Of a DNA stretch of 64,000 nucleotides, positions 9,808 to 63,147 are shown one piece after another. Made by a program: the position numbers and the translations under genes. The stretch is from a bacterium. GTDB taxonomy: Bacteria; Zhuqueibacterota; Zhuqueibacteria; Residuimicrobiales; Krinioviventaceae. The notes below the pieces were generated by a model that had not been told where the DNA came from, ran no database searches, and worked only from the letters and a program-made list of their open reading frames with translations. The number at the start of each line of letters is the position of its first letter. Positions within the stretch are counted from its first letter, which is position 1. Location: positions 1-64,000 of the forward strand of contig CAXXFV010000013.1 of NCBI GenBank assembly GCA_963674595.2. The letters run 5' to 3'.

Positions 9808-9990
9808 TAACAGGAATATGACTAACCAACCCAATCTCTTCCTCGTAAGTACTGTAACTTCCCATATATAATTTTAGAAATGGTAAATCAGCCAAAGGTA
9901 TCAGGCTCTCCCGTGCGCGACCAAATTGTCCTGAAAAATCAGTCCTTTTGTCTGACAGATAATTATACAAATTAAACAAAATCAAGGCAA
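9808..9990 (-). promoter_or_regulatory. Conserved promoter plus structured leader element, copy A
   Basis: -35 TTGCCT (9985-9990), 17 bp, -10 TATAAT (9962-9967); GTCAG..AAAGG..TCAGG..CCTGA..CCTTT..CTGAT-TTACC; AGGAA...TTCCT stem. Confidence 0.75.
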
Positions 9991-10019
9991 GATAATTTTT
10001 AAGAATGTAGAAAATAATT

Positions 10020-10215
10020 GCAGGGGTACATATCCTGTAGGGACAATTCATGAATTGCCCACCCTTCGACTTTGCTCAGGATGACACCGCTCACCTTAAT
10101 CTCTCACAATGTTCACAAAGGATGATTTTAACTATGATTTCTTTGTGTGCTTTGTGAGGATTTACATAAAACAGGGCATTTGCCCGGATCAGTTCATTGT
10201 CTGGGCCAAATCACG
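10020..10215. repeat. Intergenic REP-like palindrome mosaic
   Basis: GTAGGGACAATTCATGAATTGCCC, CTTCGACTTTGCTCAGGATGACAC, CTCACAA..TTGTGAG; about 90 bp near-identical to 8300-8385. Confidence 0.85.
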
Positions 10216-10242
10216 AACCCACTCTGCTACTTGATATATATA

Positions 10243-11355
10243 TTATTGACTCTGCTTTAAAGTTAAACCATCTATCCAAACTTCTTCTATTGGCAGGTAT
10301 ATTAATATTTCAACAGAACCGGTGTTTGAAGTAAAAAATGTCGTTTCTTTATAGGTCCAATCAACATCAATTGAATCAGCACTCCAATCAGGATTAAACA
10401 TTAAATGAGCTAATCCAGTTTGATTTTGATTAACATCTACAAAAACACTACCAATATCTGTAAATTTACCCCGGGCTTTAAACCAGCCTGAAAGTTTGTA
10501 TGTTATTTGCGGAACTAAATTAACAGGCTTGTTTAATGTTAACATTGTATATGTATTAATAGCTCCATCCGTATATGCTTTTGGATTACGATTATATAGA
10601 GCAGAATAACCTTCCATTTTTATGTTATCATCCAAAGTTGTAATATAGTTAGAACCTGAACCACGGCTAATATTCCAGTTTTGAATCAGGCTGTTCAAAT
10701 CCTCAAATTCACCATCCGGTATTAAATTACCAACGATGGTTTGTGCATTAACAATATTGCTTCCGCCCAACCTGCCATATTGATTCATTAAATAAACTCT
10801 ATAATAATATGTTTGTTGAGATAATAAATTTTTATCAGTAAATGTTGTGTCATTACGATTCGTTGAAACGTATATTAATTCTCCGGTAGTTTCATCCAGA
10901 CCAGGTGTGTCCCGTCTAAATAATTTATATTCATAAAAATCATCTGCATCTGTTGCATCCCAGGTTAATTTAATGGTTGACATTGATATATCTAAAGGGT
11001 CATACAGCAAAACAGGACGGGGTAATAGCAATGCATCTAAATTAATATCAGAATATACGGATATATTGGTGCTTTTTTCAACAAAACTTTCATTTTCATT
11101 TATTTGTTCTATATATAAATCATGTTTACCTTCACTCACATTTTGTATCTGAAACTCACCAGTTGGTGATGTCGTTACAGTCCAATTCAAAGCATTATCC
11201 ACACTTACTTTAACATTATTTACAGGTCCCTGAGAATTTAGTACGCTACCAGAAACGGTAAATAATTTTGTTTCAGGTTCGTTAGGAGATTTTCCACAAC
11301 CGGCATACACAATTAGAAGGAATAAAATTAATATGGAGGAAGCTGTTTTTTTCAT
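10243..11355 (-). CDS. Lipoprotein with carboxypeptidase-regulatory-like, fibronectin type III and carbohydrate-binding-like domains
   Basis: YAGC lipobox; FTDKNLLSQQTYYYRVY (FN3); NLIPDGEFE (CBM4/9-like start). Confidence 0.8.
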   Translation of the reverse strand: MKKTASSILILFLLIVYAGCGKSPNEPETKLFTVSGSVLNSQGPVNNVKVSVDNALNWTVTTSPTGEFQIQNVSEGKHDLYIEQINENESFVEKSTNISVYSDINLDALLLPRPVLLYDPLDISMSTIKLTWDATDADDFYEYKLFRRDTPGLDETTGELIYVSTNRNDTTFTDKNLLSQQTYYYRVYLMNQYGRLGGSNIVNAQTIVGNLIPDGEFEDLNSLIQNWNISRGSGSNYITTLDDNIKMEGYSALYNRNPKAYTDGAINTYTMLTLNKPVNLVPQITYKLSGWFKARGKFTDIGSVFVDVNQNQTGLAHLMFNPDWSADSIDVDWTYKETTFFTSNTGSVEILIYLPIEEVWIDGLTLKQSQ

Positions 11356-11454
11356 GATAGACACCTTTATTCAAGGCTAACATAATATTGACAAAATTTA
11401 TTAACCAATTAAAAATTACCAACCACACACCACCGCATCCAAGAGTTGTTGGCC

Positions 11455-11757
11455 GTGTTTTGATCGTACAAGGGTTCATACCCTTGGATGGATTAACAAA
11501 AGGGCTTTGCCCTTCTTTGCAAACAGTCTCTATGTATAGTTATAATGTGCAAAGGCCAAGCCTTTACTTTATTACGCCCAGAGGTAGGAACCTCTGGGCG
11601 ATCATACCTCCCGTCATCCCGAGCGGAGTCGAGGGATTCTCCCGCTCGCAGGGAATTTGCAATCCCCTGCGGAATCAATGGAACAGGGATTTTATCCCCA
11701 ATGTAAACAAACTCCCTCCTTCACCTGCGCTCAGGGTGACGCCGGTCAACAACCCGG
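11455..11757. repeat. Intergenic REP-like palindrome mosaic
   Basis: About 145 bp near-identical to 4914-5059, plus GTCATCCCGAGCGGAGTCGAGGGA and GCAGGG..TTTGCAATCCCCTGC modules. Confidence 0.9.
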
Positions 11758-12477
11758 TCACTTATTTTCTCTTCGTTCCCGCCTGTCCTCACGGCGTTCT
11801 CTTCGGTCTTCTCTTTGCTCTACTTTATCCTCAGTCAATTCAGCCTCAGTCGCAGCGATATCCGCTTCCATTGTCTGCTGAAATTCTTTCATCAACGTTA
11901 TATTGGCAATTGCTTTTTCGCGCAGTGTCGGGTTATCGGAAAAAGTGAACGCTTCCAGGGTACTCAAAATATGTTTCTGACGGGCAGTACGGGCAACCTG
12001 ATCATCAACATCTGCTTTGTCGTCTCTGGCATCTCTCCTGTCATCCCGCTTATCCCGACGGTCATCTCTCAGGTCTCTTCCCTCTCCCACATCGCCGTCG
12101 CCGTTTACCCGGTCTCTGCGGGATCGCCGGACTTCTCTTCTTGACGAGTTAACTTCAGAAACACTTTGAACCAATTCCTTTTCGTCCTGCGTAATTTTTC
12201 GCTCACTCTGTTCAATTTCCCGCCGCATATCGGTCATAATGTCTTGTTTCAATGATTTGACTTTAGCCATTTTTTTATCGGCAAAGGCCTCTTCAATGGC
12301 TGCAATCTTTTCTTTAAACGCTGCAAGTTGAGCCATATCTTTTTCCAATTGTGCCCTGTCAACTTTAATGGCTTTTTTATCATCGGTTGCCTCTTTCACA
12401 TTTCTGAGGACCTGAGCATGGCTGTTATGAACCAGCACCATCACTAAAAATATCATCAATCCAATGATTTTTTTCAT
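11758..12477 (-). CDS. Secreted coiled-coil protein with RDDRRD/REDRRE charge repeats
   Basis: Signal peptide ending SHA; low-complexity R/D/E runs; GGAG RBS. Confidence 0.8.
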   Translation of the reverse strand: MKKIIGLMIFLVMVLVHNSHAQVLRNVKEATDDKKAIKVDRAQLEKDMAQLAAFKEKIAAIEEAFADKKMAKVKSLKQDIMTDMRREIEQSERKITQDEKELVQSVSEVNSSRREVRRSRRDRVNGDGDVGEGRDLRDDRRDKRDDRRDARDDKADVDDQVARTARQKHILSTLEAFTFSDNPTLREKAIANITLMKEFQQTMEADIAATEAELTEDKVEQREDRRERREDRRERRENK

Positions 12478-12646
12478 GATCTACTCCTTTTTAAAATTTT
12501 AATGTCAATTTTTACATGACTTTTGCTTTACAATCTAAAATCAGGCTGCAGAGTACGGTCCTGTCGCAATAGTTATATAGTATAAACGTTCCGGTTTATA
12601 AAAGACATACCCCACTCACTCCAACCCAAATATTTAAACCATGAAA

Positions 12647-12828
12647 TAACAGGAATATGATATTGCAACCTACGCAATCTCTTCCTCGCGTGTATGTTGG
12701 AATCCCATTTATATGTTTAGTAAATCAGCCAAAAATCTTCAGGCACTCCCGCGCGCCACCAAATCGTCCTGAAAAATCTCCATTATTGCTGATAAATCAA
12801 TTATACAAATTAAATAAAAACAAGGCAA
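12647..12828 (-). promoter_or_regulatory. Conserved promoter plus structured leader element, copy B
   Basis: TTGCCT (12823-12828)-N17-TATAAT (12800-12805); ATCAGC..TCAGG..CCTGA..GCTGAT-TTAC; GAGGAAGAGATTGC..GCAATATCATATTCCTG. Confidence 0.75.
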
Positions 12829-12856
12829 GGGATTTTTAAAAAATGTTAATTATTCA

Positions 12857-15145
12857 TTAACTTTTGGTATCCAGTTTTATAAGAACATTTTCAGACAGTT
12901 GCAGTTCAAGCAGGGACTGAAGAAAAGCCAGTGTAGACTCTGCACCCTGGTTTTCGTTAATGCGGTCAGGATGTAAACCGTCCTGGCAGCCTCCGGTAAT
13001 GGGATCGTATAAAGAGAGATTCAAGTCGTTACGCCCAAGAAACCATTCAAAGGCACGGCGGGCTTCCTTGCGCCACTTTTTGTCAAGCGTAATCCGATAC
13101 GCTTCAAGACATGCTGAAACCATCGTTTGTGCTTCCACAGGTTGTTGATCAAATCGTGCACGAGGACTCCCCTTCACATAAAAACCATTGGAGCCTATAG
13201 GAACAAAATATCCGGAACCCGAACGCTGTAATTCCTTCAACCAATTCAACGATTCCAGACCGGCTTCGGTTAAAAGGGTATTTGACATAACTCGACCGGA
13301 AACAAGTAATGCATGGGGCAATACTGCGTTACAATAAGTCAACCTGTTTTCATACCATCTCCATTCAGCTGAATAATTGTTTTGATATAACTTGAAAAGT
13401 CGATTTGCAAGTTCCTCAAGGACCAGGTTGGCACGGCGATCACCTTCAAAGCGCTGCAAATATTCATGAATTCCAATAATGGAAAAAGACCAGGCCCGGG
13501 GACTGGTTGTATCAATAATGGCAGGCAGGGCCTTTTCAAAAATATGGCTCGCCATACTTTGTAAAGCCGGTATGTTAGAACGTCCCAGCAGAGTTCCCAA
13601 TGCCCACAATGTTCGTCCATGACTGTCCTGAGAGCCGCTTTCTTCCAACCAGTTACGCTGATAGTCCATAAAATTACGAAAGCGCCCTGTTTTATCATTA
13701 AATGCATACCAGATAAAGGCGAGATATCGGGAAGCGAATTTTAACGCATCTTTATTGCCGATTGCTTCTAAAAAAGCACTCACTATGAGCGCACGTGCAT
13801 TGTCGTCAATAGAATATCCTTCCTGATAATTTGGAATTGTGAAAACAGCATGTTGTATCATGCCTGTTTCATCTGTCATATTCCGTAAATGATCCAGTTT
13901 TAGGTTTGGTAATTCACCCGGTCTTTTATCTAAAGGTTTAACAGCAAAATCCGGATTAGCGAAATGACGTCGTTCAGTCCGTGCACGTTCAAAGCTTTTT
14001 ATATATAATTTGGCCACCTGTGGCCAAATCATCTCTCGCCCAAAAACATAGGCACGTTTGCGCATTGCATGACGTTCCGATTCGTTATTTAAAAGTTCAA
14101 TTACCTGGTCTGCAAGGGCAGCAGGATCTTTAAAAGGGACTAAAACGCCGCGTCCATCAGCCAGCATTTCTTCCGCATACCAATACGGTGTAGAAATAAC
14201 CGCTTTGCCTGCTCCCAGTGTGTAAGCAAGTGTTCCAGAAGTTATTTGTGCGGCATTTAGATAGGGCGTAATATAAATATCTGCCGCACTGATGAATTGA
14301 ACGAGTTCTTCCAGGCTCACATAACGATTATAAAAAATAACCTGACTTTCAACACCTAACTCTTGGGCCAGCCATTGTAAGGACAACCGGTATTTTTCAC
14401 CTTCATTTCGCAGCACCTGAGGGTGTGTGGCTCCAAGGATAATGTATACAATATTCGGGTGTTTTTTTGATATTGCAGGAAGGGCTGAAATGACATTTTC
14501 TATGCCTTTACTCGCGGAAAGAAGTCCAAAACTTAGTAAAACGGTTTTACCTTCAACTCCAAACAAGTCTTTGTGAAAACTCGGATCAACAAAAGAGACA
14601 TCCGGAATTCCATGATGTATCATATCAATCTTTTCCGGCTGTATACCATAAATGTTTTGCAAAAATTCCGCCCCGCGTTTGCTCATAACAATTATCCGGT
14701 CAGACAATGAAGCAACTTCCATCAACACTTTTTTCTGCTCGGGAGTGGGTTCACGCAAAATTGTGTGTAATGTTGTAACAATGGGCATCCGCAGTTCATG
14801 TAAAAGCTCAAGAATATGGCTTCCGGCACGTCCGCCAAAAATGCCGTATTCATGCTGCAGGGAGACAATGTCTACATTATTGATATTTAAAAACTCGGCA
14901 GCGCGCCGATAAGAATCGATGTTTTTCTCCACAAGTTCAAATCTGACACTGGACGGATAGGTGTAACCCTCTTCAATATCATTAACCGGTACAGCTATAC
15001 AGGCTGTTTTATTATATTGATCGGCAATTGCTTTACACAAGTCGGTAGTAAATGTAGCGATACCACATTGACGCGGCATAAAAGTACCAATAAACGCAAT
15101 GCGTTTTAATATTGATTGGTTTGTATCGGGTTCCATAATAAACAT
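12857..15145 (-). CDS. Family 4 glycosyltransferase with C-terminal six-hairpin glycosidase-like domain
   Basis: PRQCGIATFT, QHEYGIFGG, TPYLN..QITSGTLAY, VISTPYWYAEE; C-terminal GYSIDDNARAL, FDQQPVEA, NENQGAESTLA. Confidence 0.9.
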   Translation of the reverse strand: MFIMEPDTNQSILKRIAFIGTFMPRQCGIATFTTDLCKAIADQYNKTACIAVPVNDIEEGYTYPSSVRFELVEKNIDSYRRAAEFLNINNVDIVSLQHEYGIFGGRAGSHILELLHELRMPIVTTLHTILREPTPEQKKVLMEVASLSDRIIVMSKRGAEFLQNIYGIQPEKIDMIHHGIPDVSFVDPSFHKDLFGVEGKTVLLSFGLLSASKGIENVISALPAISKKHPNIVYIILGATHPQVLRNEGEKYRLSLQWLAQELGVESQVIFYNRYVSLEELVQFISAADIYITPYLNAAQITSGTLAYTLGAGKAVISTPYWYAEEMLADGRGVLVPFKDPAALADQVIELLNNESERHAMRKRAYVFGREMIWPQVAKLYIKSFERARTERRHFANPDFAVKPLDKRPGELPNLKLDHLRNMTDETGMIQHAVFTIPNYQEGYSIDDNARALIVSAFLEAIGNKDALKFASRYLAFIWYAFNDKTGRFRNFMDYQRNWLEESGSQDSHGRTLWALGTLLGRSNIPALQSMASHIFEKALPAIIDTTSPRAWSFSIIGIHEYLQRFEGDRRANLVLEELANRLFKLYQNNYSAEWRWYENRLTYCNAVLPHALLVSGRVMSNTLLTEAGLESLNWLKELQRSGSGYFVPIGSNGFYVKGSPRARFDQQPVEAQTMVSACLEAYRITLDKKWRKEARRAFEWFLGRNDLNLSLYDPITGGCQDGLHPDRINENQGAESTLAFLQSLLELQLSENVLIKLDTKS

Positions 15146-15395
15146 CTCTTTTCCGGAAAATTTTCCTTTTTGTTACCTCTTGGTTAATACATAAAAATGG
15201 ATGGTTTCATTATTTAATGTTTTAACGGATTGTCCATATTTTGGGTTAGCGCAAATATTTTTAGTGAGGAAGGTGAGCCGCAGTTATCCATCTGATTAAA
15301 AGAATCAGACCAGGGATATTCGTCTTACTTTTCCCTGGTCAAATTGTTCTAATAATATGCTAAAGTATTTGTAAGATAATCTTTTATGTGTTGAT

Positions 15396-16250
15396 TTATT
15401 TATTTAGCGGAACAACACCAGCCATCTCGCCAATAACATTAACCAATTCAGACCCAACAGGAACAACTATTTTTGTATTATTCTCAAGGGCTGCTTCAAC
15501 AGTCTGCAGCTTTCTTAATAATTGTGCATTTCCAATAAAATATTTATTTGCCGCCTCGTTCACTAATCTAATAGCCTCTGCATCGCCTTCTGCATGCAAA
15601 ATGCTGGCCTGCTTTACGCCTTCAGCTTCTTTGATTTTTGATCGTTTTTCACCGTCTGCTCTTGTTTCAGTCGCTGTAGCAAAATCTATGGATGATATTT
15701 TTTCATTTTCAGCTTTTACGACTTTGTTCATTGTTTCCTGAACATCTGCCGGAGGGTCTATTTCTTTTAGCTCGGTTCGCACAATTTCAATTCCCCAACT
15801 TTTGGTTTCTTCATGTAATGTTTTGTGCAGCTCGGAATTGATTTTTCCCCGCTCACTATTAGCAGATTTTAGTGTAAGTGTTCCGATTATATTCCTTAAC
15901 GTGGTCCGGGCAAGGTTTACTATCTGCCATTGATAATTATTCACATTATATTGCGAGCTTTTAACACTTTCTTCATCAAGTTTTACTTTAAAATAAACTT
16001 GTGCATCAACTCGTGCGTTTAAATTGTCGTTGGTAATTATTTCCTGCGGTTCTGCGTCTATCATTTGTTCCGTTGTATTTACCTTGAACATTTTTTCTAT
16101 TCCAGGGATTACCCAATGAAAACCCGGATTGGAAAAACGATTATATTTTCCGAATCGCTCTACTAAACCCCTATGTGTCGGCCTTACAATTTTTATCCCG
16201 ATTATAAAAATCAGGAAAAGAACTGCTATGATAAAAGTTATAGTATTCAT
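15396..16250 (-). CDS. SPFH/band 7 (stomatin-like) protein
   Basis: GLVERFGKY, QEIITNDN, TTLRNIIG, WGIEIVRTELKEIDPP. Confidence 0.92.
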   Translation of the reverse strand: MNTITFIIAVLFLIFIIGIKIVRPTHRGLVERFGKYNRFSNPGFHWVIPGIEKMFKVNTTEQMIDAEPQEIITNDNLNARVDAQVYFKVKLDEESVKSSQYNVNNYQWQIVNLARTTLRNIIGTLTLKSANSERGKINSELHKTLHEETKSWGIEIVRTELKEIDPPADVQETMNKVVKAENEKISSIDFATATETRADGEKRSKIKEAEGVKQASILHAEGDAEAIRLVNEAANKYFIGNAQLLRKLQTVEAALENNTKIVVPVGSELVNVIGEMAGVVPLNK

Positions 16251-16325
16251 TTTGTCTGCCTTTTTTTGTAAGTTAGAACAATCTTTTTTCTGAATTATAA
16301 TTTAAACTTTGGATATTGTTTTGTT

Positions 16326-17216
16326 TCACTTTGTATCCAAAATTATCGGCAAACCGTCTTTGCCGGCGCCGACAATAATTACTTTTGTATTGGGTGAGCT
16401 TGCAAGCTTTTCTGTTGCTTCAATGCCTTTCCAACGAAGTAATTGTTCGCTGATACCTGCAGCAACAATAGACTGAAAATCTGCAATACCTTTTGCTTCT
16501 ATCCGCTTCCTGTCTGCTTCCTGCTTTTCTTTTGTAAGGATAAATTCCATCCGCTGACTTTCCTGATCAGCTTTTTGCTTTTGCTCAATTGCTTCAGTAA
16601 GCTGGACCGGCAGTGCAACATTACGTAAAGGTGTGGTTTCTATAGTGACTCCACGCGGGGCAACTATCCTGGCTAGTTCTTCCTGAATAGCCATACCCAG
16701 CTGGTCCCTTTCGGTTGAATAAAGCGCACTCGCTTGAAAACTTGCAGTAACGGCACGGCTGATAGAACGAAATTGGGGAATGAGGATAATGGTCTCATAA
16801 TCGCCTCCGGCTACAGTTTTGTAAACACGAGCTGCAGAGTCTGGGTTAAGTCTGTAAAGAGCGCTTATCTCTAAACCAATAGTCAGACCTTCACGTGAGA
16901 GCACCTCCATTGTTTCCTTATGTTCCTTGGTTTGTATTGAAAATTTAATAATACGTGCAAATGGATTAACGATATTTATACCAGCTGGCAGTGTTCTTGC
17001 TGATACAATACCAAAGGTATCTATTACGCCAACATGTCCGGCAGGCACTTGTGTGAAAAACTGAATCAATGCAAGAATGCCAGCAGCAACCATTGTAAAA
17101 AGACTTATATTACTGCCTGATCGATATATAGTATTGTTTTGTTTCACCTGTCTTGCGGTATATCGCCAGGAAAAAAATGCGGTTATAGTAATGAGTACTG
17201 ATAATATAAAAATCAT
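16326..17216 (-). CDS. SPFH (prohibitin-like) protein
   Basis: VPAGHVGV, AIEQKQ, EADRKRIEAKGIA, LLRWKGIEAT. Confidence 0.9.
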   Translation of the reverse strand: MIFILSVLITITAFFSWRYTARQVKQNNTIYRSGSNISLFTMVAAGILALIQFFTQVPAGHVGVIDTFGIVSARTLPAGINIVNPFARIIKFSIQTKEHKETMEVLSREGLTIGLEISALYRLNPDSAARVYKTVAGGDYETIILIPQFRSISRAVTASFQASALYSTERDQLGMAIQEELARIVAPRGVTIETTPLRNVALPVQLTEAIEQKQKADQESQRMEFILTKEKQEADRKRIEAKGIADFQSIVAAGISEQLLRWKGIEATEKLASSPNTKVIIVGAGKDGLPIILDTK

Positions 17217-17239
17217 GATATTCTCCGGTTATTTTTAGT

Positions 17240-18895
17240 TTATGTTTTTATCAATTCCAAATATAATTCGGCTTTCTGGCTATATTGTTCTGTTAAAGAC
17301 ATATCCTGTTTTTCTTTAAAGTCACGGGCCTCAATAGCTTTAATCTCTTGAGTGATATGTTTAATTGTAAAGTTTGACTGTTTTTGAAAATGGATAAACA
17401 TAGCAGAAAGGCTGACAGCCGCTTCTATGTTTTTAGGGTTCTTGAACAAAACCTCTAAAAGCATTTTAAAATAAGGCCGTGCGATTGACTTGTCTTTTCC
17501 AAGTTGACGGCTAATCTTTATTAAGACCAAACTTGATTTTAAACTTTTAAACCACCCCTGTTTATACCTGGGAACTCTCTTCAAATCAAGCGCAACACCT
17601 GTCACTCTTTTAAAATAGTTAACCGGATCATAGACGGCACGTTCTATCCGTACAAAATCTTTCAAAATATCAATCCTCGGCCTGTTGGTGATAAAGTTTA
17701 AACCGCTTGTTGTCTGGTCGACCATGGTCTGATTATTATCAAGTTTCGAACTATTATCAAACAACCTTTTTTCTTTTCTCAAACGTTTTGACAATTTGGT
17801 ATTGGGTAATGCGTATAGCATGCCAATCATAGCCATGCAAATGTTTGAATCCTGGATACACCGGACCATGTTGTCAGCGATTTGATGGCTCTCATGATCA
17901 AAACCAATAATAAAACCGGCATTAACAATCATCCCGTATGAGTGTATCTTTCTGGTTGTCATCTCAACAGATTTGTTTATATTCGCTGTTTTGTTTGTCA
18001 TAATCAGCGCTAAATCTTCCGGGGTTTCTATACCTATAAAGACATATCGAAAATCAACCTCTTTCATCATTTGCATCAATTCTTCATCGTCTGCCAGATT
18101 GATAGAGCATTCTGTTGATAAAAAAAATGGATAATTGTACCATTCCAGCCATCTTTTTATGGCAGGTAATAATCTTTTTACCTTTCTCTTGTTTCCGATA
18201 AAATTGTCATCCACAATATCAATATGTCCCCGGTAACCCAAATCATAAAGGGTTTGAAGTTCCCGAATAATCTGTTCAGGATTTTTAGTACGCGGTGAAC
18301 TGCCAAATAGTTCAACAATATCGCAAAACTCACATTGGAACGGGCAGCCCCGTGAATATTGAATGCCGATTTGTAAATAATCCTCAAACCGGATTAAATC
18401 AAACCTCGGAACAACGGCCTGCATCATGTCCGCTTTTTCTTTAGATTGATACAAACCTCTTGTATAACCTTTTTCCCAATCGGCCAGAAAACAAGGTATC
18501 GTCACTTCACCTTCACCAAGGACCAAAAAGTCAGCAGATTGATACAACTCGGGCTGGGATGTTGGATCAGGCCCGCCCACGACAACCGGCAGATTAAACT
18601 GATGTGCCCTGTCAATAATGGAAAGCATATTAGCTTGTTGAGGCAGCATACCTCCAATGCATACAATATCCGCCCATTCAAAATGTTCATCAAGGACCTC
18701 TTTAACATTTTGATCTAAAAGTTTGAACGTCCATTGCTGGGGGAGTAAAGCGGCAACCGTCAGCAGTCCCAAAGGTGCAGCCGGGTATTTCGCACCGACC
18801 AATTCACAGACATCCGTATAATTCCAGTAACTAAAAGCAGAAAACTTTGGCTGTACCATTAAACACCTGGTATTGGGTTGTGGTAATGTTTTCAT
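17240..18895 (-). CDS. B12-binding radical SAM protein (DUF4070-type C-terminus)
   Basis: PLGLLTVAALLP, VVVGGP, SRGCPFQCEFC (CxxxCxxC), DDNFIG. Confidence 0.92.
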   Translation of the reverse strand: MKTLPQPNTRCLMVQPKFSAFSYWNYTDVCELVGAKYPAAPLGLLTVAALLPQQWTFKLLDQNVKEVLDEHFEWADIVCIGGMLPQQANMLSIIDRAHQFNLPVVVGGPDPTSQPELYQSADFLVLGEGEVTIPCFLADWEKGYTRGLYQSKEKADMMQAVVPRFDLIRFEDYLQIGIQYSRGCPFQCEFCDIVELFGSSPRTKNPEQIIRELQTLYDLGYRGHIDIVDDNFIGNKRKVKRLLPAIKRWLEWYNYPFFLSTECSINLADDEELMQMMKEVDFRYVFIGIETPEDLALIMTNKTANINKSVEMTTRKIHSYGMIVNAGFIIGFDHESHQIADNMVRCIQDSNICMAMIGMLYALPNTKLSKRLRKEKRLFDNSSKLDNNQTMVDQTTSGLNFITNRPRIDILKDFVRIERAVYDPVNYFKRVTGVALDLKRVPRYKQGWFKSLKSSLVLIKISRQLGKDKSIARPYFKMLLEVLFKNPKNIEAAVSLSAMFIHFQKQSNFTIKHITQEIKAIEARDFKEKQDMSLTEQYSQKAELYLELIKT

Positions 18896-18993
18896 ATTAA
18901 ATCTTTCATAATATTCAAGTTTCGTTTAAACTTTTACGAATCGTTTCCGGCTTGCACAACAACATTATTATTTTTCAATAATAACCGCTGGCA

Positions 18994-19287
18994 CTAAGAT
19001 GTATATGCATAAATTTTGATTGCATCATCACTAATAATATATTCAGGACAGATCATTTTAAGCATGGTTTTAAAATTCAGAAACAAGTTGCTTAAAATTT
19101 CATAAGAAACCCCGCTATTGGCAATTTTTACAATATAATCATCGGAATCAATTTGCAACACTTGAAGGTATTCGGGATCATTGTTCATAAAATAAGGTTT
19201 AACTGAAGTTTTGCTGGAATCAAGATTGTCCTGTAGTTTATCATTTATTTTTATACCTACAATGATCTTGTTATTATTATGTTGCAT
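18994..19287 (-). CDS. Small hypothetical protein
   Basis: GGAG RBS before ATG at 19287; co-oriented within the cluster. Confidence 0.6.
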   Translation of the reverse strand: MQHNNNKIIVGIKINDKLQDNLDSSKTSVKPYFMNNDPEYLQVLQIDSDDYIVKIANSGVSYEILSNLFLNFKTMLKMICPEYIISDDAIKIYAYTS

Positions 19288-19407
19288 AGGAAACTCCAAA
19301 TTCTTTTGGCTTGCTTTCTTCAAGTTCTACAATTCCATCGTTATTCCCGGTCGTTTTGAATTTTTATCCGTTAAAAAAATGAATTAAAGCAAGATATAGA
19401 ATAGATA

Positions 19408-19534: not shown

Positions 19535-19604
19535 TTTTTACTCCTTTTTTGATAGAAAATTAGCTTTTAAGGGCCTATACACATAACTGACAATAATTTA
19601 TTAA

Positions 19605-54994: not shown

Positions 54995-55205
54995 TATTCC
55001 CCGGCGGAACCCATAAAACCGGGATTATATCCCCAATGGAAATTAATTCTCCCGCTTCCACTCGGGCCTTGAAAACAGCCGAAAGGCCGCTCCGGGTGTT
55101 ACTCCCCGCTCGCAGGGGATTTGCAATCCACTGCGGAACCAATGAATTCGGGATTTTATCCCCGATGTAAGCAAATTTCCCCCTTTGGCTTTGTTCTGGG
55201 TAACA
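54995..55205. repeat. Intergenic REP-like palindrome mosaic
   Basis: Two GGAACC.ATG/TAAA..GGGATT.TATCCCC modules plus GGGCCTTGA..GCCGAAAGGCC. Confidence 0.8.
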
Positions 55206-55299
55206 CCGATTTAACTCCATCTACACTTCATCCCAGAGTCCGGAGATGCAGATATTTGCCATGAAAAAATCACCAAAACGAGCAGAGAATGAAAAAACT

Positions 55300-58083
55300 C
55301 TATTTTTGTAAAATTAATTTCCTGGTCTCAATATAATTATCAGCTTTTAACCTGTACAAATAAATTCCATTTGCCAGGCCGCCAGGTTGCCATTTTACAT
55401 TGTATTCTCCTGCTGTATGATAACCATCAACTAATGTCTCTATGAGTTGACCGGAAAGATTATAAATAGCAAGCTTGACATATGATGATGTTGGTAACTG
55501 AAAACTAATCGTTGTTTCAGGATTAAAGGGATTCGGGTAATTCTGTTTCAATCTAAAAGACTTTATGTTTTCAATATCATTAGATTCACACGTTACATCC
55601 GAACTGGATGTAAAATAAGCCGTAACATCTTTATCCTGCGTCATCGTTATATTTTTAGGATTTACGCTTCCGCTTATTCCACCCCAATAATCAAATGTAA
55701 AGCCTGAATTTGCGACTGCTTCTAATTGTACTGTTTCGTTATAACTAAAATTAGTCTTGTTTGGAGTTTTATTCACACTACCAGAACCTGATGGACTGGA
55801 AGAAAGTACAAGATTACAATAAGAAAGAGCAACAGATTTTGTGCCTGACCAGCCGGAAACGATACCTGTGTGTGTTTGACATCGGGCGCGTGCTTTAACA
55901 TATTTAGTGCCGGAGCTGCTAAAAGCGTGGCTTTTTGTTAAAGCGCCCCAGCTTGATTGCGATCCGTCACCCCAATCAAACTGATATTCAACCGTATGTC
56001 CCAAATTGCTGCTTGAGCCTCCGGTAGTGAATGCTAAACTTTGCCCAACCTTGCCGCTAGAAGGACCGCTTGGTTTATTTGGTGTGGAGACAGTCTCCTG
56101 ACTCTGGTTTTGAGTAAAATTAGCCGTAACACTTTTATCACCGCTCATTGTCAACGTTTGTGGATTGGCACTGCCGCTTAACGCACCATCCCAAGTATTA
56201 AAGTAATAACCTGAAATCGGATTAGCAGTTAACTGAACTGTTTCATTATAAGTAAAATTGGTCTTGTCCGGATTTTTATTAACACTCCCTTTACCGGCAG
56301 GATTTATTGTAATTGAAAGAACACAGTAAGAGATGGCAACAGATTTTGTGCTTGACCAACCGGATACTATACTTGTGTGTGTTTGACATCGGGCGCGTGC
56401 TTTAACATATTTAGTGCCTGTGCTACTAAATGTGTGGCTTTTTGTTGAAGCGCCCCAACTTGATTGTGATCCATCACCCCAATCAAACTGGTATTCAACA
56501 TTGTGTCCTAAATTACTGTTTGAGCCTCCAGTACTGAATGATAAACTTTGCCCAACCTTGCCGCTAGAAGGACCGCTGGGCTGATTAGGTGTGGAGATGG
56601 TCTCCTGACTTTGGCTTTGAGTGAAATTGACCGTAACACTTTTATCACCGCTCATTGTCAATGTTTGTGGATTGGAACTACCACTTAACGCACCATCCCA
56701 ACTATTAAAGTAATAACCTGAAATTGCGCTGGCTGTTAACTGAACTGTTTCGTTATAAGTAAAATTGGTCTTGTCTGGATTTTTATTAACACTTCCTTTG
56801 CCGGCAGGATTTATTGTAATTGAAAGAATACAGTAAGAGATGGCAACAGATTTTGTGCTTGACCAACTGGAAACAATACTCGTATGTGTTTGACATCGGG
56901 CGCGTGCTTTAACATATTTAGTGCCTGTGCTGCTAAAAGTGTGGCTTTTTGTTAAAGCGCCCCAACTTGATTGTGATCCATCACCCCAATCAAACTGGTA
57001 TTCAACATTGTGACCTAAATTACTGTTTGAGCCTCCGGTAGTAAAAGATAAACTTTGTCCTGCTTTACCGCTTGAAGGACCGCTGGGTTGATTGGGTGTG
57101 GATACTGTCTCTTCTGTTTGAGGTTCTGTTACAGTTATATAATTTGTTTTTGTTACTTCATCTCTTTGACTCACAGAAATTGCATTCAAAGTAACATTAT
57201 AAGTACCTGGTGTACTATAAGTATGTAAGGGATTTTGTGTACTGCTGGTTGCTCCATCTCCGAACGACCAGTTCCAATCTCTTGGATCACCCACAGTTAA
57301 ATCTGTAAAATTTACAGATAAAGGGGCAGAACCTGTCCTTGGAGATGCTGAAAAATCGATATTATGCGTTATAGGACCTTCAAAACTACCGGAACTTGGA
57401 AAAAATAAATCATGCCATGTACCATCATTATAAGTACATTGAAAACGAAATGTGTTGGTGCCAAACATGAGATAGCTGCCATTAACTGTTTGATAATACT
57501 CTTTTCCTGTTCGAATATCACCAGATCCTTCATTCATTATCATAGTGTTTGATCTACTGGTACCAGAGTTTATACACACATAAACACTAGAGGGTTCGTC
57601 TCCTTCAGTGTCGGTGCAAATAACACTATATCTATAGGTATCCTCATTAAGCTTTCCCCCGGATTGAGGCGTCACCTGACCATTTGACAAAGCCGGAGGT
57701 TGATTTTCAGGTTCTTCAGATGCAATTATTACAATATCAAAAACTTTTTCTATTTTTAGTTCGTGATCAGAATTATAAAACCGATAAGTAACAGTCCCGG
57801 TAAACGTTGTACCATTAGCGACAGAACCGGCAACCGATATGTCAAATCGGGCATATACAGCATAACCATTACTTATAAGATCATCATGAGTGACATTAAT
57901 AGTGCCTGGAAACGAATCATTTATTTCATAAAATGGATAAGCGAGAACAGAGGTCGATCCTACATTTTTATTTAAACTCTTCGTTTCTCCAGGTGGGATA
58001 TAAATCGTTGTTTGCGCCAGCACCAGTTCTGACATCAAAATCAAACCCGAAACCAAATAAAACAACATGCTTTTACAATTCAT
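55300..58083 (-). CDS. Secreted PKD/InlB-B-repeat surface protein with C-terminal secretion domain
   Basis: WSFGDG PKD; 507-bp unit x3 (YQFDWGDG + ETVQL.A...GY.F..W.G); QNYPNPFNP...KLILQK. Confidence 0.9.
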   Translation of the reverse strand: MNCKSMLFYLVSGLILMSELVLAQTTIYIPPGETKSLNKNVGSTSVLAYPFYEINDSFPGTINVTHDDLISNGYAVYARFDISVAGSVANGTTFTGTVTYRFYNSDHELKIEKVFDIVIIASEEPENQPPALSNGQVTPQSGGKLNEDTYRYSVICTDTEGDEPSSVYVCINSGTSRSNTMIMNEGSGDIRTGKEYYQTVNGSYLMFGTNTFRFQCTYNDGTWHDLFFPSSGSFEGPITHNIDFSASPRTGSAPLSVNFTDLTVGDPRDWNWSFGDGATSSTQNPLHTYSTPGTYNVTLNAISVSQRDEVTKTNYITVTEPQTEETVSTPNQPSGPSSGKAGQSLSFTTGGSNSNLGHNVEYQFDWGDGSQSSWGALTKSHTFSSTGTKYVKARARCQTHTSIVSSWSSTKSVAISYCILSITINPAGKGSVNKNPDKTNFTYNETVQLTASAISGYYFNSWDGALSGSSNPQTLTMSGDKSVTVNFTQSQSQETISTPNQPSGPSSGKVGQSLSFSTGGSNSNLGHNVEYQFDWGDGSQSSWGASTKSHTFSSTGTKYVKARARCQTHTSIVSGWSSTKSVAISYCVLSITINPAGKGSVNKNPDKTNFTYNETVQLTANPISGYYFNTWDGALSGSANPQTLTMSGDKSVTANFTQNQSQETVSTPNKPSGPSSGKVGQSLAFTTGGSSSNLGHTVEYQFDWGDGSQSSWGALTKSHAFSSSGTKYVKARARCQTHTGIVSGWSGTKSVALSYCNLVLSSSPSGSGSVNKTPNKTNFSYNETVQLEAVANSGFTFDYWGGISGSVNPKNITMTQDKDVTAYFTSSSDVTCESNDIENIKSFRLKQNYPNPFNPETTISFQLPTSSYVKLAIYNLSGQLIETLVDGYHTAGEYNVKWQPGGLANGIYLYRLKADNYIETRKLILQK

Positions 58084-58302: not shown

Positions 58303-58405
58303 GTGGTAAATCAGCTAAAGGTTGTCAGGAGTTCCCAAACTTATTCCTAATAACAAACTTAAAGTCTGACAAAGTAATATAACAAATTTAATAAAAGCAA
58401 GGCAA
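58303..58405 (-). promoter_or_regulatory. Conserved promoter plus structured leader element, copy E (first hairpin only)
   Basis: TTGCCT (58400-58405)-N18-TATATT; GTCAG..AAGTTTGT..AGGA..TCCTG.ACAACCTT..CTGAT-TTACC. Confidence 0.65.
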
Positions 58406-58459: not shown

Positions 58460-58840
58460 ATTTTCCCGCTCGCAGGTGCTTAAAAATCCCCCTGCGCAAC
58501 CAATGAATTCGGGATTTTATCCCCAATGGGAACAAATCCCCCCTTGGCTCCGCTCCGAGTGACACGGCTCGTTTTAACCTCTCACAATGTTCACAAAGCT
58601 CACAAAGAAACAGTTGTAGGCTGGGCCAAAATGGCCCGGCATTGAATTGATACTTTTATTAATTTTGTAATATTTGTATAAATATTTTCTTTCCGTTTAT
58701 CTTATTGCCGGGTTCCACAAGGGAACCCGGCCTACAACTCAGGGCAACACCCGTTTTAATTTCGTTTCCCTGTCATCCCGAACGGAGTCGAGGACTCTAA
58801 GAGACCTGTCTCCGTATCTTCCTTCGATTTACTCAGGGAA
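58460..58840. repeat. Intergenic REP-like palindrome mosaic
   Basis: CCCGCTCGCAGG..ATCCCCCTGCG, CTCACAATGTTCACAAAGCTCACAAAG, GTAGGCTGGGCC..GGCCCGGC, GTCATCCCGAACGGAGTCGAGG. Confidence 0.8.
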
Positions 58841-58881: not shown

Positions 58882-59691
58882 CTAAAAAATTCCCTTTGTA
58901 TGAAGCGCATTAATCACCATAAACAAAGCTGCCAACCAATTCGTATAAGCAAATAGTTTTTTAAGATGTTTAGGCTTTGTTATCAACGCAAATTTTCCGC
59001 CCAACAATCCACCCATAACTGTAACAAATGCTAACGGAACAGCCCATAAAGGGTTAAAATCTCCCTGGATAGCATGCCCCGCAAAACCCATAAACGCAGT
59101 TGCCGCTATAAGTGTTGATGCTGTTCCGACGGCTGTGTGCATCGGCACCCCACAAGCCAAAACCATTAACGGAACCAGGAAAGAACCTCCTGAAACGCCA
59201 ACCATCCCGGAACCAAAACCTGTTAAAACAGTGACCGGTAAAGCGATCCATAAATTTACATTATAAATTTCATTGCCGGATTTTATACTTATAATTCCTA
59301 AATGTTTATTTTTTGAGATGGTCTGATTCTCTGAAACAGGAACCAGCATTACTATTCCGGCTATTAACAACATTACGGCAAAAATCAGCTTTAATGAAAA
59401 TCCGCTGAACAAATGAGAAAAATATCCTCCCCCAAGTGCTGACAAGGCCGTAAATGTGCCGATCAGCACAGCCAACACCCATGATACGGACTTGTTTTTT
59501 TGAAAAACAATCATGGCTGCCACAGAAGCCGAAAAAAGAATAAACTGACCGGTTGTCGCTGCTTCGTGCATTGGAATATTGGCAATTGCCAAAATTACAA
59601 CATAAAAATTCCCTCCGCCCTTACCAACCATTGTCATGGCAACAGCAACAATAAAAATGAGAAAGCTAACTATAACAAGATTTATCATCAA
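58882..59691 (-). CDS. Sulfite exporter TauE/SafE (TSUP) family protein
   Basis: MVGKGGG, SGMVGVSGGSFLVP, AVGTAS; multi-TM. Confidence 0.9.
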   Translation of the reverse strand: MMINLVIVSFLIFIVAVAMTMVGKGGGNFYVVILAIANIPMHEAATTGQFILFSASVAAMIVFQKNKSVSWVLAVLIGTFTALSALGGGYFSHLFSGFSLKLIFAVMLLIAGIVMLVPVSENQTISKNKHLGIISIKSGNEIYNVNLWIALPVTVLTGFGSGMVGVSGGSFLVPLMVLACGVPMHTAVGTASTLIAATAFMGFAGHAIQGDFNPLWAVPLAFVTVMGGLLGGKFALITKPKHLKKLFAYTNWLAALFMVINALHTKGIF

Positions 59692-59702
59692 ATAATCCCT
59701 CT

Positions 59703-60095
59703 TTAGTTTTTGCCTTTAATGACATTGAGAACCTTTCCCGGCTTTAAAGCTTCTGTCAGAGCAGAATATCCGCCGTCAACAATGCGTATTTCCGGGAATC
59801 CTAATGATAGCAAATAGGCATAGACAATGGATGATCTGACATTAGAGGGACAAAATACACCTATAAATTTTGTTTTTGATATCTCATCAATTCTGTCAGG
59901 AATTTCGTTGATCGGTATATTCAAAGATTCCACATGAGCGTGATGCTCCAATTTTATAGAGATGGAATCGGATTCTTCTTTTGATCGAACATCCAATAAA
60001 AGACATTTCTCCATATCAAAAAACTTTTCCGGTGATATTTTATGTTTTCCGTTTCCAAAATAATCTAATGTAAAACTTTTAAGAACATTTTCCAT
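59703..60095 (-). CDS. Rhodanese-like domain protein
   Basis: LLDVRS.EE, LNIP, VFCPSNVRS, VDGG. Confidence 0.88.
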   Translation of the reverse strand: MENVLKSFTLDYFGNGKHKISPEKFFDMEKCLLLDVRSKEESDSISIKLEHHAHVESLNIPINEIPDRIDEISKTKFIGVFCPSNVRSSIVYAYLLSLGFPEIRIVDGGYSALTEALKPGKVLNVIKGKN

Positions 60096-60286
60096 TTCAC
60101 TCTCCTTTATAATATGGGTATAACGTTATTTCAATACATTTCTTTACCCATATTCGCAGTGGACATATATAGTTTTAGAGTGCCGTCTTTCGGCATCGTT
60201 TAGATGATTTTTTCTTAATCCTCATGCAATGGTGCGGTAGAACCGCTCCCCACAGATGAAAACAATTCTCAATATCTTGTAAAATA

Positions 60287-60315
60287 ATGATACAGATTAA
60301 ATAAAATCAAGGCAA
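60287..60315 (-). promoter_or_regulatory. Conserved promoter element, copy F (promoter only; leader hairpin absent)
   Basis: TTGCCTTGATTTTATTTAATCTGTATCAT = TTGCCT-N17-TATCAT, with a spacer nearly identical to copies A and D. Confidence 0.65.
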
Positions 60316-60339: not shown

Positions 60340-60710
60340 ATTTTCGAGGGCGTAAAAAAAAACAGGACATCTGCCCTGCTATAATAATTATCCCCAATGG
60401 AAATAAATTCTTCCCCATCAGCTTTGCTCAGGGTGGCACCCGTTCGAAATCGCGGACGCTGAGCAAAGTCGAAGCGGGAGCGTTGTCAAGCTGTGATCGT
60501 CCAGGGGTTCTCTACCCCTGGACGCATTAACAAAAGGGCTTGGCCCTTTTATATAAAACATTCTTTATTTATTGTTGTAATGTGCCGCTCGCAGGAGATA
60601 TACATTCCCCTGCGGAACCAATGAAATCAGGATTTCATCCCCAGCAAAACATCCGCACGATCAATTGATATGTGCAGGGATTAAATTTTTAATCCCTGCA
60701 TGGTTTGATC
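60340..60710. repeat. Intergenic REP-like palindrome mosaic
   Basis: GTCCAGGGGTTCTCTACCCCTGGAC, AAGGGCTTGGCCCTT, CGCTCGCAGG..CCCCTGCGGAACCAATG, GCAGGGATTAAATTTTTAATCCCTGC. Confidence 0.85.
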
Positions 60711-61875: not shown

Positions 61876-61876
61876 G

Positions 61877-62161
61877 TTATAACCTCCTGTTCTTCAAGGC
61901 TTCCTTGAGGGAGGCGCTTGCACGGAACTTGACAACCCGTTTTAGCGGCAGCAGCATAAAACATTTTTGCTGTGGATTATAGGATTTGCGTTTTTTCTTC
62001 AAAACCACTCTGAATAAACCCAGTCCCGGAATTGTAATAATCATATCTTTATCAAGATATTCCATTATAATCCGGGCGCTGCTTTCCAAAATGTGTTTTA
62101 TTTCAGTCTGTGGTATTCCAAGTCGTGTGGATAGACTCTTTTGCAGCTCAGAATTGGTCAT
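61877..62161 (-). CDS. HU/IHF family DNA-binding protein (divergent)
   Basis: MTNSEL...IPGLGLF...KRKSYNP...VVKFRAS.SLKE. Confidence 0.85.
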   Translation of the reverse strand: MTNSELQKSLSTRLGIPQTEIKHILESSARIIMEYLDKDMIITIPGLGLFRVVLKKKRKSYNPQQKCFMLLPLKRVVKFRASASLKEALKNRRL

Positions 62162-62275
62162 TACAGCCTCCTTGTATTTTTGGTCGTCCCTCCTGTATCA
62201 AATAGTCCTTAATTATGGTTACATTTTTCAACGCACACCGGCCGGAACCGCTGAGCAATCAAGAATTTCATCAAT

Positions 62276-62827
62276 CTACCATTTTGGAGCCGATGAAAGC
62301 GAAAACCAGGATTCCTTATATTTATAAAGTTTTTCCATTGTAACAGGATGTTTTTTTGCCTGTCTTTTAACGAAATATAAATAATTCTCTTCTTTATCTA
62401 TGATGATTGAATCACCATATGCAATTCCATATTCTTCCAGAATTGGTCTTCCTGTATTTACAGGGTAAAATATTTCGGTAGTAAGAACGCTGTCATTATC
62501 AAGTTTATAATAACCAATTAAACCACCATCTGTATAATTTAAATCCTCATTTGTTAATGAATCACTAAATAGATCACTACGGTAAACTCGTCCATTTCCC
62601 CAAAATCTATAAAAATAAAATTGAGTAGTATCAGTACCATATAATTTAGACATGTAGACAGCATTTGTATCAATATATGTCGTCGTAGATAACTGGAATG
62701 GATAATTTATAAGTTCAAATTCCGGTTTAATTGGTCGATAACCGCCACCCGGCGTTTGATAAGCAATAGGTGAACATGATATAAATAATAATGCTATAAA
62801 TACTAATTTTAAAAATAGTGATTTCAT
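62276..62827 (-). CDS. Hypothetical lipoprotein; distant paralog of 7302-7994
   Basis: FISC lipobox; RFWGNG, GYYKLDNDSV, GIAYGDSIII. Confidence 0.75.
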   Translation of the reverse strand: MKSLFLKLVFIALLFISCSPIAYQTPGGGYRPIKPEFELINYPFQLSTTTYIDTNAVYMSKLYGTDTTQFYFYRFWGNGRVYRSDLFSDSLTNEDLNYTDGGLIGYYKLDNDSVLTTEIFYPVNTGRPILEEYGIAYGDSIIIDKEENYLYFVKRQAKKHPVTMEKLYKYKESWFSLSSAPKW

Positions 62828-62959
62828 CTTTATTCGACCTGGTTATAATTTAACGGCGCCATCCATTATATATTTTAAATGGTAATCATAGCGGTACTCC
62901 CGAACCGGCACCATATTAATATAAACAAACCACACCCCATCCAATAATAATGACCGTGA

Positions 62960-63147
62960 AATAACAGGAATGTGATTTTGTGAGCAACGCAATCTCTTCC
63001 TCGTGTAAGTATTTGAATTTCGTATTTATATAAAGGTAGTAAATCAGCCGATAACTTGAATAGTTCCCGTGCGCGACCAAATCGTCCTAAAAAGTCGTTC
63101 GTTATGACTGACAAGATAATAATACAAATTAAATAAAAACAAGGCAA
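62960..63147 (-). promoter_or_regulatory. Conserved promoter plus structured leader element, copy G
   Basis: TTGCCT (63142-63147)-N17-TATTAT; GTCAG.CATAAC...TTTGGTCGCGCACGGGA...GTTATCGGCTGAT-TTAC; GAGGAAGAGATT..AATCACATTCCTG. Confidence 0.75.

Follow-up and report, generated by a model that had tools for sequence, protein, structure and literature searches.

What kind of element recurs seven times in one orientation, each time in front of a different gene, within a short stretch of a single bacterial genome? The window analysed here is the first 64,000 nucleotides (nt) of contig CAXXFV010000013.1 (assembly GCA_963674595.2, family Krinioviventaceae; contig C13 below), and it belongs to a genome of 6.6 Mb with a GC content of 38.8% in 37 contigs. 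A preliminary description of the window had placed in it seven minus-strand copies (A to G) of a promoter followed by an RNA hairpin closed by RTCAG/CTGAT, a conserved loop, a tail and a second hairpin. Direct reading and alignment bore out this arrangement and confirmed all seven copies (7/7) on that strand; the size first given, approximately 100-190 bp, proved too short, and the unit covers approximately 300 nt from about position -70 to the end of the leader. We propose, with moderate confidence, that the unit is a lineage-specific, cis-acting expression module consisting of a promoter and a structured 5' leader, dispersed through accessory and defence islands and placed at the 5' edge of exchangeable accessory-gene units, a reading that we regard as about evenly balanced. 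Among the roles suggested earlier, a portable expression platform fits the data best, because the unit stands at the 5' edge of strain-variable gene units whose genes are AT-rich, unrelated and in part defence-like.

The extent of the family was determined using covariance models. The first model (R1) was built from six window copies, 150 of 1878 genome candidates were scored with it, and at least 79 matches at E<=0.01 were obtained in this genome; the second (R2), comprising hairpin 1 only with its 20 base pairs, gave 70 matches. With such numbers, the seven window copies are not a chance resemblance. More diverged leaders are visible 3' of the same promoter type, and the family comprises about 80-100 diverged copies of the approximately 300-nt unit in one genome, more than first noted. 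The copies are clustered (20 on C29, 10 on C26 and 8 on C13) and locally co-oriented. They are old and diverged, with a median pairwise identity of 63%, and their loop, tail and second hairpin are nonetheless conserved; nearby copies are more similar to each other (69% identity within 20 kb versus 62% elsewhere). The family is restricted to this genome in the searches made. R1 gave no match among 40 relatives (18 of the same family and 22 of the same order), and R2 gave none among the 18 same-family genomes or, under stricter filters with 31 candidates scored per genome, among 150 genomes from 93 genera of the phylum. An exact-pattern scan of public genome contigs returned six loci, each single and below 15 bits with R1, which look like chance, and scans of metagenomes and of the viral collection IMG/VR returned no match. 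Rfam 15 gave no match over the window at the gathering score and none at E<=10 overlapping any copy. The element is thus uncatalogued within these searches; the part of the literature reached by keyword consisted of general papers on MITEs (miniature inverted-repeat transposable elements), repeats and RNA motifs, which does not establish the element as undescribed.

The anatomy of the leader can be described from its 5' end. Hairpin 1 is 75 nt long, consists of three helices (P1-P3) with a conserved apical loop of 18-20 nt, and starts at approximately the expected +1. It is followed by a UUUACCA tail, the ACGGGAUU motif and a Shine-Dalgarno (SD)-like GAGGAAGAGA, whose pairing with AUUCCU gives hairpin 2, and many copies add a GGUUUCACGGUC stretch and a G/U-rich block 3' of hairpin 2. 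The purine motif ACGGGA lies 3' of the conserved tail, the leader containing three ACG(R)GGA-type motifs, and the 3' end of the leader differs between subfamilies. Each gene has its own ribosome-binding site (RBS), separated from the leader by a non-conserved spacer, and a scan of the leaders of A, B, E, F and G predicted no intrinsic terminators.

Hairpin 1 is maintained by compensatory change, as had been suspected from the window copies. In an unfitted MAFFT alignment of 43 copies (A5), its positions pair in 80.8% of cells, compared with 31-43% in controls with the partners slid by 1-3 columns; both sides change in 13 of 20 pairs, which was reached by 1 of 500 shuffles, and the covariation value is 0.186 versus 0.05-0.08 in the slid controls. 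In a model-fitted alignment of 72 distinct copies (A7), 82.6% of cells pair versus 25-43% after sliding, both sides change in all 20 pairs, and 98 compensated cells were counted versus 46 +/- 6 in shuffles. Helix P1 contains 50 G.U against 11 A.C combinations and P3 29 against 22; the excess in P1 indicates that pairing is selected on the would-be transcribed strand. Together with the lack of an Rfam match, these changes support the earlier view of an unrecognised structured element. Hairpin 2 pairs in 84% of cells versus 30-50% after sliding. RNAalifold suggests that the 3' strand of hairpin 2 might, weakly, pair instead with the G-block, which would be a possible switch. On paper, the tail ACCA can be paired with the loop UGGU, and hairpin 2 with either the loop or the G-block, all of them segments that barely vary; in a mutual-information scan of the MAFFT alignment, the subfamily signal dominates.

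A structured leader of this kind raises the question of a metabolite or second-messenger riboswitch, or of a family of trans-acting small or guide RNAs. The conserved apical loop and the covariation of hairpin 1 would suit such RNAs, and certain classes of riboswitch occur many times in a genome in front of varied genes. The element here folds into one irregular hairpin that lacks a multi-helix junction, the genes behind it have unrelated functions, no copy was found in the 150 phylum genomes and no Rfam family matches. The riboswitch suggested earlier is not supported, because the genes share no common function, no terminator was found (A, B, E, F and G), the RBS lies free behind its non-conserved spacer, and the element is confined to one lineage. 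The suggested guide or bridge RNA also lacks support, since conserved loops and variable stems are the opposite of what a programmable guide has, and only 1 of 79 copies adjoins a recombinase-type integrase. We therefore consider this group of explanations highly improbable. On the same pattern of invariant loops, variable stems and unrelated downstream genes, the bridge RNA of IS110, the omega RNA of TnpB and CRISPR RNA were rejected individually. A T-box leader was discarded as well (no Rfam T-box match and no terminator in A, B, E, F or G), as was a leader-peptide attenuator, given that 1-nt and 4-nt indels break the frame behind the SD-like motif and TTG. The acceptor-like P1 with ACCA recalls a tRNA, and ARAGORN found none in the window. 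The genome has one csrA gene, in a flgL-fliW-csrA flagellar context, and a CsrA target was not retained; the ACG(R)GGA motifs remain a lead only. As for a trans partner, the best listed matches to the complement of the loop lay at leader copies, their own opposite strands aside, and not all 24 (<=3 mismatches) were checked.

The promoter is of the sigma70 type, with an A-tract, a -35 element containing CTTGC, a 17-nt spacer and a TG-extended -10. In the window copies, a TTGCCT or TTGCAG hexamer is separated by 17-18 nt from a TATAAT-like -10; a consensus scan recovered the hexamers at all five copies to which it was applied (A, B, E, F and G), and those of C and D were identified by direct reading. 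Conservation begins approximately 25 nt 5' of the -35 element in an A/T-tract resembling an UP element. An extended promoter word (A-tract, CTTGC, spacer and TTTGTAWWAT) occurs 47 times in this genome against 0-1 times in each of the 18 same-family genomes, and its reversed control occurs 0 times; therefore, the promoter belongs to the expanded repeat and is not merely the local promoter consensus. The tRNA, groES and rRNA promoters of the genome have the CTTGAC ... TTTGTA style in common with it. A looser pattern gave 124 sites, of which 65 have a leader and 52 are intergenic without an R1 leader, so that promoter and leader are separable modules. The same promoter type also precedes a different conserved leader, starting TTAATTRACTTRATCA, at C9:148626, C10:45899 and C25:13554, and the promoter module thus pairs with more than one leader family. 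In copy A, the -10 ends 5 nt before the first base of the hairpin, which would place the expected +1 within the first three bases of P1. Separately, five tandem promoter-like repeats (CTTGACA with a TAYCTT-type -10) were observed 5' of the single 16S gene in the rRNA operon on C3 (local stretch L106, 3160-3560); this operon has one boxA in its leader and another in the 16S-23S spacer, where it follows tRNA-Ile and tRNA-Ala.

The relation of the unit to the genes behind it is strongly directional. The nearest downstream open reading frame (ORF) of at least 80 aa is co-oriented with the leader in 74 of 79 copies, and among copies whose two neighbours are co-directional, 61 are sense and 1 is antisense; hence, the unit behaves as a promoter and not as a randomly inserting repeat. 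A same-strand ORF starts within 700 nt of 72 copies. The 72 proteins carry 109 Pfam families, the commonest of which occurs in 4 of them, and include proteins with type IX secretion system (T9SS) tails, helicases, Gp49 toxins, GmrSD, a caspase, a TIR protein and apolipoprotein N-acyltransferase (lnt). PADLOC matched 73 models at E<=1e-5, including ThsB, LmuA, DrmD-like proteins, type I restriction-modification subunits and HEC-05. Leader-headed genes have a GC content of 35.1% compared with 39.2% for all genes (p=4e-10). Within the window, the downstream genes had been called unrelated, and Pfam agrees: lnt, a T9SS-tailed beta-propeller protein, a T9SS-tailed PKD protein, and rhodanese with TauE were identified, and three proteins have no family. 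One region elsewhere, C29:46582-51164, holds four promoter-leader copies in 4.6 kb and forms a defence and toxin-antitoxin island of leader-headed units, with a porin-like protein, two near-identical Gp49 (HigB-like)/helix-turn-helix toxin-antitoxin pairs, a 69-aa membrane peptide and a nucleoside 2-deoxyribosyltransferase-like protein.

Structured RNA directly after the start of long 5' untranslated regions (UTRs) before AT-rich accessory genes would also be expected of a processive antitermination or anti-Rho leader (similar to the rrn/nut, put, EAR or RfaH/UpxY types) serving AT-rich foreign genes. No terminator (A, B, E, F and G) or RBS-sequestering platform was found in the leader, as this explanation would have it, and the order of hairpin, conserved single-stranded tail and G/U-rich block is similar in nut and rrn leaders. 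Against it, the boxA of the genome (TGTTCTTTGAAAA, read in the 16S leader and spacer) does not occur in the leader, and no Rfam antitermination family matches. Two NusG-family genes (PF02357) are present, versus 0-3 in 18 relatives, so that no paralog is specific to this genome, although the one NusG paralog (C7:125383) may still act. An antiterminator leader, one of the roles first suggested, accordingly keeps a small probability in its general form, with neither the boxA version nor the version with a genome-specific NusG paralog finding its components here; overall, we rate it very improbable.

Gene turnover adjoins the leader. Contigs from four sequencing runs (coded, X7 and X9 among them) were aligned to window positions 5000-24000. 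An 11.4-kb X9 contig joins position 8277 to 11707 with no extra letters, which means that this contig is without 3.43 kb (8278-11706) containing three genes, copy A and a leader remnant, a presence/absence polymorphism at strain level. A 6.5-kb X7 contig keeps 9695-10143, with leader A, and 5202-8177, whereas the 1.3 kb between them cannot be aligned at >=85%; the window segment 8178-9694 is thus replaced by non-aligning sequence. The X7 break (9695) falls where the homology of copy A to its closest paralog stops (9694). Both X9 breakpoints fall in a second dispersed repeat, Repeat-2, with one minus-strand copy at 8195-8325, the 3' edge of the unit behind A, and the other at 11625-11748. Repeat-2 is approximately 60-130 nt long with two small hairpins, and its full copies have terminal inverted repeats of 13-25 nt. 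At least 45 copies occur in the genome, co-oriented with genes (22/22 on C13), and no Rfam family matches; the repeat looks like a repetitive extragenic palindrome (REP) or MITE, and two genes similar to REP-associated tyrosine transposases (RAYTs) adjoin Repeat-2 copies on C29 and C26. In the window, further minus-strand copies lie at 459-515, 4871-4911, 5150-5223, 10074-10099, 22210-22255, 23185-23287, 35373-35458, 39207-39278, 46354-46421, 48026-48092, 49897-49977, 54998-55057, 55105-55208, 58460-58570, 60585-60643 and 63265-63348. A Repeat-2 copy or fragment is found 55-270 nt 5' of the promoter in five of the seven window copies. Considering these positions and the breakpoints, gene units appear to be bounded by the leader at the 5' side and Repeat-2 at the 3' side. 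A third repeat was also observed, a hairpin of approximately 40 nt with GGTGYGG TTCT ACCGCACC inside an outer stem and no Rfam match; at least 33 copies lie on C13, C26, C29 and C18, 5' of genes, some within the 3' part of a leader and others on their own, an example being the one that follows promoter F and precedes rhodanese/TauE. Its window copies are at 60228-60249, 44745-44766 and 9275-9296 on the minus strand and 42237-42258 on the plus strand.

Many diverged copies in one genome with none in relatives suggest another explanation, in which the unit is a non-autonomous mobile DNA element (a MITE, a palindrome-associated transposable element or a REP-like sequence) with an outward-reading passenger promoter. 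In that case, hairpin 1 would be a folded single-stranded DNA signal for a Y1 HUH transposase (IS200/IS605 TnpA or RAYT), and the promoter would be kept where a neighbouring gene is switched on. The expansion of the promoter word along with the leader fits this explanation, as does the greater similarity of adjacent copies. The genome has eight Y1_Tnp matches, and a RAYT at C23:97828-98376 on the minus strand (NF047646, 85.5 bits, cut-off 80) sits between two promoter-leader copies in direct orientation that are approximately 90% identical (C23:98522 and C23:97284). That the G.T asymmetry of P1 favours one strand is consistent with recognition of single-stranded DNA, and the TTAC word 3' of the hairpin recalls IS608, which uses TTAC. 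On the other hand, neither terminal inverted repeats nor target duplications recur consistently: three of four copies examined have weak, AT-rich arms of low identity, and copy B has none. No insertion sequence (IS) copy with matching ends was found, and the 3' boundary varies by subfamily. The 61:1 orientation is far above what replication-strand preference would give, RAYTs are usually flanked by inverted REPs and not by direct 300-nt units, and the median identity is just 63%, yet specific loops are conserved. A Correia-like MITE in particular was rejected on its lack of consistent terminal repeats or duplications, its varying 3' ends and its single orientation. Taken together, we consider a mobile element unlikely, though it is the alternative to be taken most seriously.

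The coincidence at 9694/9695 points to a further feature of some leaders. The alternative 3' leader domain called module 4 is a conserved stretch of approximately 40-110 nt, and its abrupt end, ATGTTAG or a close variant, is located 15-30 nt 5' of different genes. The junction reads G|TTAGG, compared with G|TTRRRY for the crossover site of an attI. Seven copies exist in the genome (window 9694-9731 on the minus strand, C29:61625, C25:9208, C29:1283, C10:50122, C13:74156 and C13:73616), with the 110-nt form in copies A and C29:61395. The last 18 nt of module 4 agree at 12 positions, TAAAAC and G|TTA among them, with the attI1 crossover region in a plasmid record for a class 1 integron, a match that was found with hindsight. 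A complete integron integrase is encoded at C3:115820-116812 on the minus strand (TIGR02249, 454 bits, cut-off 265), is 45-52% identical to annotated IntI proteins including IntI1, and has leader copy C3:116782 as its 5' UTR, the leader being truncated directly after hairpin 2; a decayed second leader with an intI remnant lies at C6:1585. A CRISPR array of approximately 48 repeats of 37 nt with spacers of approximately 37 nt (C3:108318-111900) was noted 4 kb from this integrase; the interval holds three ORFs (243, 322 and 419 aa) that may be cas genes.

These features can be read as an integron-related docking platform, in which the promoter-leader corresponds to Pc plus an attI-like 3' site for promoterless genes and the leader is mainly the fixed 5' flank of a recombination site. 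The bona fide integrase directly behind one leader, the remnant behind another, the sharp ATG|TTAG end of module 4 before different genes, the attI1 likeness and the joint position of paralog homology end and X7 breakpoint at the end of module 4 would all follow from it. However, module 4 occurs in only 2 of 79 hairpin-bearing leaders, and G|TT-type words are not enriched in leader tails (ATGTT in 23 of 79 versus 18 +/- 3.6 expected; GTTAG in 8 versus 10.4), whose 3' boundaries lie at no single position. No cassette array was found beside intI, and attC-type core sites (RYYYAAC...GTTRRRY) were found by direct reading neither in hairpin 1 nor in Repeat-2. Moreover, the leader is co-directional with intI, unlike in classical integrons. 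We consider the docking platform improbable. A distributed form of integron-related gene capture is rather improbable as well: the units would be expression docks, with accessory and defence genes swapped between a 5' dock (promoter and leader, in some copies with an attI-like G|TTAG junction) and Repeat-2 at the 3' side. Exchange would proceed by the integron integrase, a RAYT or both, or be driven by homology, and every captured gene would gain the same strong promoter and RNA leader.

Under the cis-acting expression module that we favour, a strong sigma70-type promoter and a structured leader of approximately 230-300 nt would be co-transcribed with whichever gene follows. The transcript would start within the first bases of the 75-nt hairpin 1, which would give the mRNA a base-paired 5' end. 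Next would come the single-stranded UUUACCA, ACGGGA and hairpin 2, with its SD-like and anti-SD-like strands, often the G/U-rich block, and then the non-conserved spacer and the RBS of the gene itself. The leader would act after initiation: the 5'-terminal hairpin may protect or insulate the transcript, and the invariant loop and three ACG(R)GGA-type motifs are putative contact sites for a common factor. The family itself, its size, orientation and covariation, its restriction to this genome and the gene turnover beside it are observed; transcription from the promoter, its start site and a stabilising or factor-binding role are what we infer from the sequence. In this way, approximately 80-100 accessory gene units may be placed under one regime of expression and regulation, with the module as the 5' boundary of exchangeable units and with recombination substrates provided by the repeat families.

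Several points weigh against this proposal. The promoter, the +1 and co-transcription are predictions, and a conserved-promoter unit that has multiplied in a single lineage also has the appearance of a DNA repeat that moves or recombines. Because G.T pairs are tolerated in folded single-stranded DNA, a role at the DNA level is compatible with the strand asymmetry of P1. Helix P2 pairs in 72% of cells with no G.U excess (34 G.U versus 43 A.C), and the covariation of hairpin 2 is not above shuffles (7 pairs versus 4.1; 27/500), since this hairpin is mostly invariant. With RNAalifold, the gappy R1-fitted alignment A3 yielded no consensus structure, and the second domain yielded only a weak one. 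All aligned copies are paralogs of one genome and thus not independent, and A7 leans towards the model to which it was fitted. The search for a trans factor identified none.

Should the expression module be confirmed, approximately 80-100 horizontally acquired genes, including defence systems, toxin-antitoxin pairs, secreted T9SS cargo and an integron integrase, would be standardised in expression by one promoter and RNA-leader cassette. Such a system would parallel, in nature, the promoter-plus-insulator parts of synthetic biology and would provide a handle on the domestication of foreign genes. It would also represent a new structured RNA whose invariant loop presumably binds something, and a compact test case for dispersed repeats that organise defence islands. 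If the integron-related version were true, the known architectures of gene capture would be widened.

The individual window copies, all on the minus strand, illustrate how the modules combine. The conserved loop is found in A, B, D and G and the second hairpin in A, B, C and G. Copy A has its promoter (TTGCCT, 17 nt, TATAAT, with an A-tract 5' of the -35) at 9962-9990, as located by consensus scan, hairpin 1 with P1-P3 and a TTTACCA tail at 9881-9956 (R2 match, 77.4 bits), and the linker with hairpin 2, in which the SD-like GAGGAAGAGA pairs with ATTCCT, at 9808-9880 (R1 match 9808-9958). Module 4 follows at 9694-9807, where homology with C29:61395 ends at ATGTTAG, 13 nt 5' of the ATG of a gene for 101 aa without a Pfam family (9376-9681). 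In copy B, the promoter at 12800-12828 (consensus scan) is followed by a leader at 12647-12795 matched by R1 and R2, with hairpin 1 at 12718-12793 and then hairpin 2; the gene behind it (11758-12477) encodes 239 aa with a signal-peptide-like N-terminus and no Pfam family. G-rich blocks had been reported in B, in G and alone at about 11420-11442, and all three were recovered: sequence reading placed G/U-rich blocks at 12603-12629 in B and 62928-62943 in G, and the solitary block at 11419-11442 is a leader remnant 5' of the gene at 10243-11364.

Copy C (promoter TTGCAG, 17 nt, TATTAT at 33242-33270, direct reading) has a leader at 33090-33238 with R1 and R2 matches, in which hairpin 1 (33163-33236) has a diverged loop, and precedes lnt (31396-32949; Pfam LNT_N and CN_hydrolase). 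In copy D, the promoter at 35111-35139 (direct reading) and the leader at 34960-35106 (R1 and R2 matches) are followed by a Pfam-assigned beta-propeller protein with a T9SS sorting tail (33629-34885); hairpin 1 lies at 35031-35104, and hairpin 2 keeps its 5' half only. Copy E, with a promoter at 58376-58405 (consensus scan), retains hairpin 1 at 58304-58370 (R2, 36.6 bits) with a shortened loop and a different P2 sequence, and shows no conserved sequence 3' of the tail; by Pfam, the gene behind it (55300-58083) encodes a PKD/InlB-B-repeat protein with a T9SS tail. As first described, copy F consists of the promoter only (60287-60315, consensus scan), followed by a different small hairpin motif and by the Pfam-assigned genes for rhodanese and then TauE/SafE (58882-60095). 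Copy G is composed of a promoter at 63119-63147 (consensus scan) and a leader at 62962-63114 (R1 and R2 matches), with hairpin 1 at 63037-63112 and then hairpin 2, before a gene for a lipoprotein-like protein of 183 aa without a Pfam family (62276-62827).

Among known systems, the unit resembles promoter-bearing dispersed repeats of the Correia type and integron Pc platforms, and it shows the defining features of neither. With Correia (CREE/NEMIS), ERIC, BOX and RUP-type repeats it shares the character of short, lineage-restricted intergenic repeats in tens to hundreds of diverged copies. Those repeats are co-transcribed with their neighbours and fold into hairpins as RNA, and some of them contribute promoter elements; they are palindromic sequences of 100-150 bp with terminal inverted repeats and occur in either orientation. 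In contrast, the present unit is approximately 300 nt long, non-palindromic overall and equipped with a complete promoter; its orientation is 61:1 sense, its terminal repeats are inconsistent, and its stems are kept by compensatory change. The integron platform (intI, Pc and attI) is similar in placing unrelated, exchangeable and often promoterless genes behind one fixed promoter region, and the likeness extends to the integrase gene directly behind one copy and to the leader subtype that ends G|TTAG like the attI1 crossover. It differs in that dozens of dispersed platforms exist here instead of one, with no recognised attC array, a leader co-oriented with intI and no junction motif in most leaders.

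The 5'-terminal stem-loops that stabilise mRNAs, such as that of the ompA 5' UTR, are single-gene features that are not known to need a conserved loop sequence. The leader is comparable to them in having a hairpin at or within a few bases of the predicted transcript 5' end that is independent of the coding sequence, whereas here a loop that does not vary is joined by a tail and a second domain in approximately 80 copies. In processive antitermination (rrn/nut boxA-boxB, put, EAR, ops/JUMPStart and UpxY leaders), accessory or foreign operons have long leaders with RNA or DNA signals close to the promoter; the present leader shares the promoter-proximal position and differs in its lack of the genome's own boxA, of a genome-specific NusG paralog and of an Rfam match. 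Finally, REPs and bacterial interspersed mosaic elements with their RAYTs are abundant, strand-biased palindromic intergenic repeats, and RAYT-type genes are present in this genome. REPs are hairpins of 20-40 bp tagged by a tetranucleotide and usually located 3' of genes, a description that fits Repeat-2 better than the leader.

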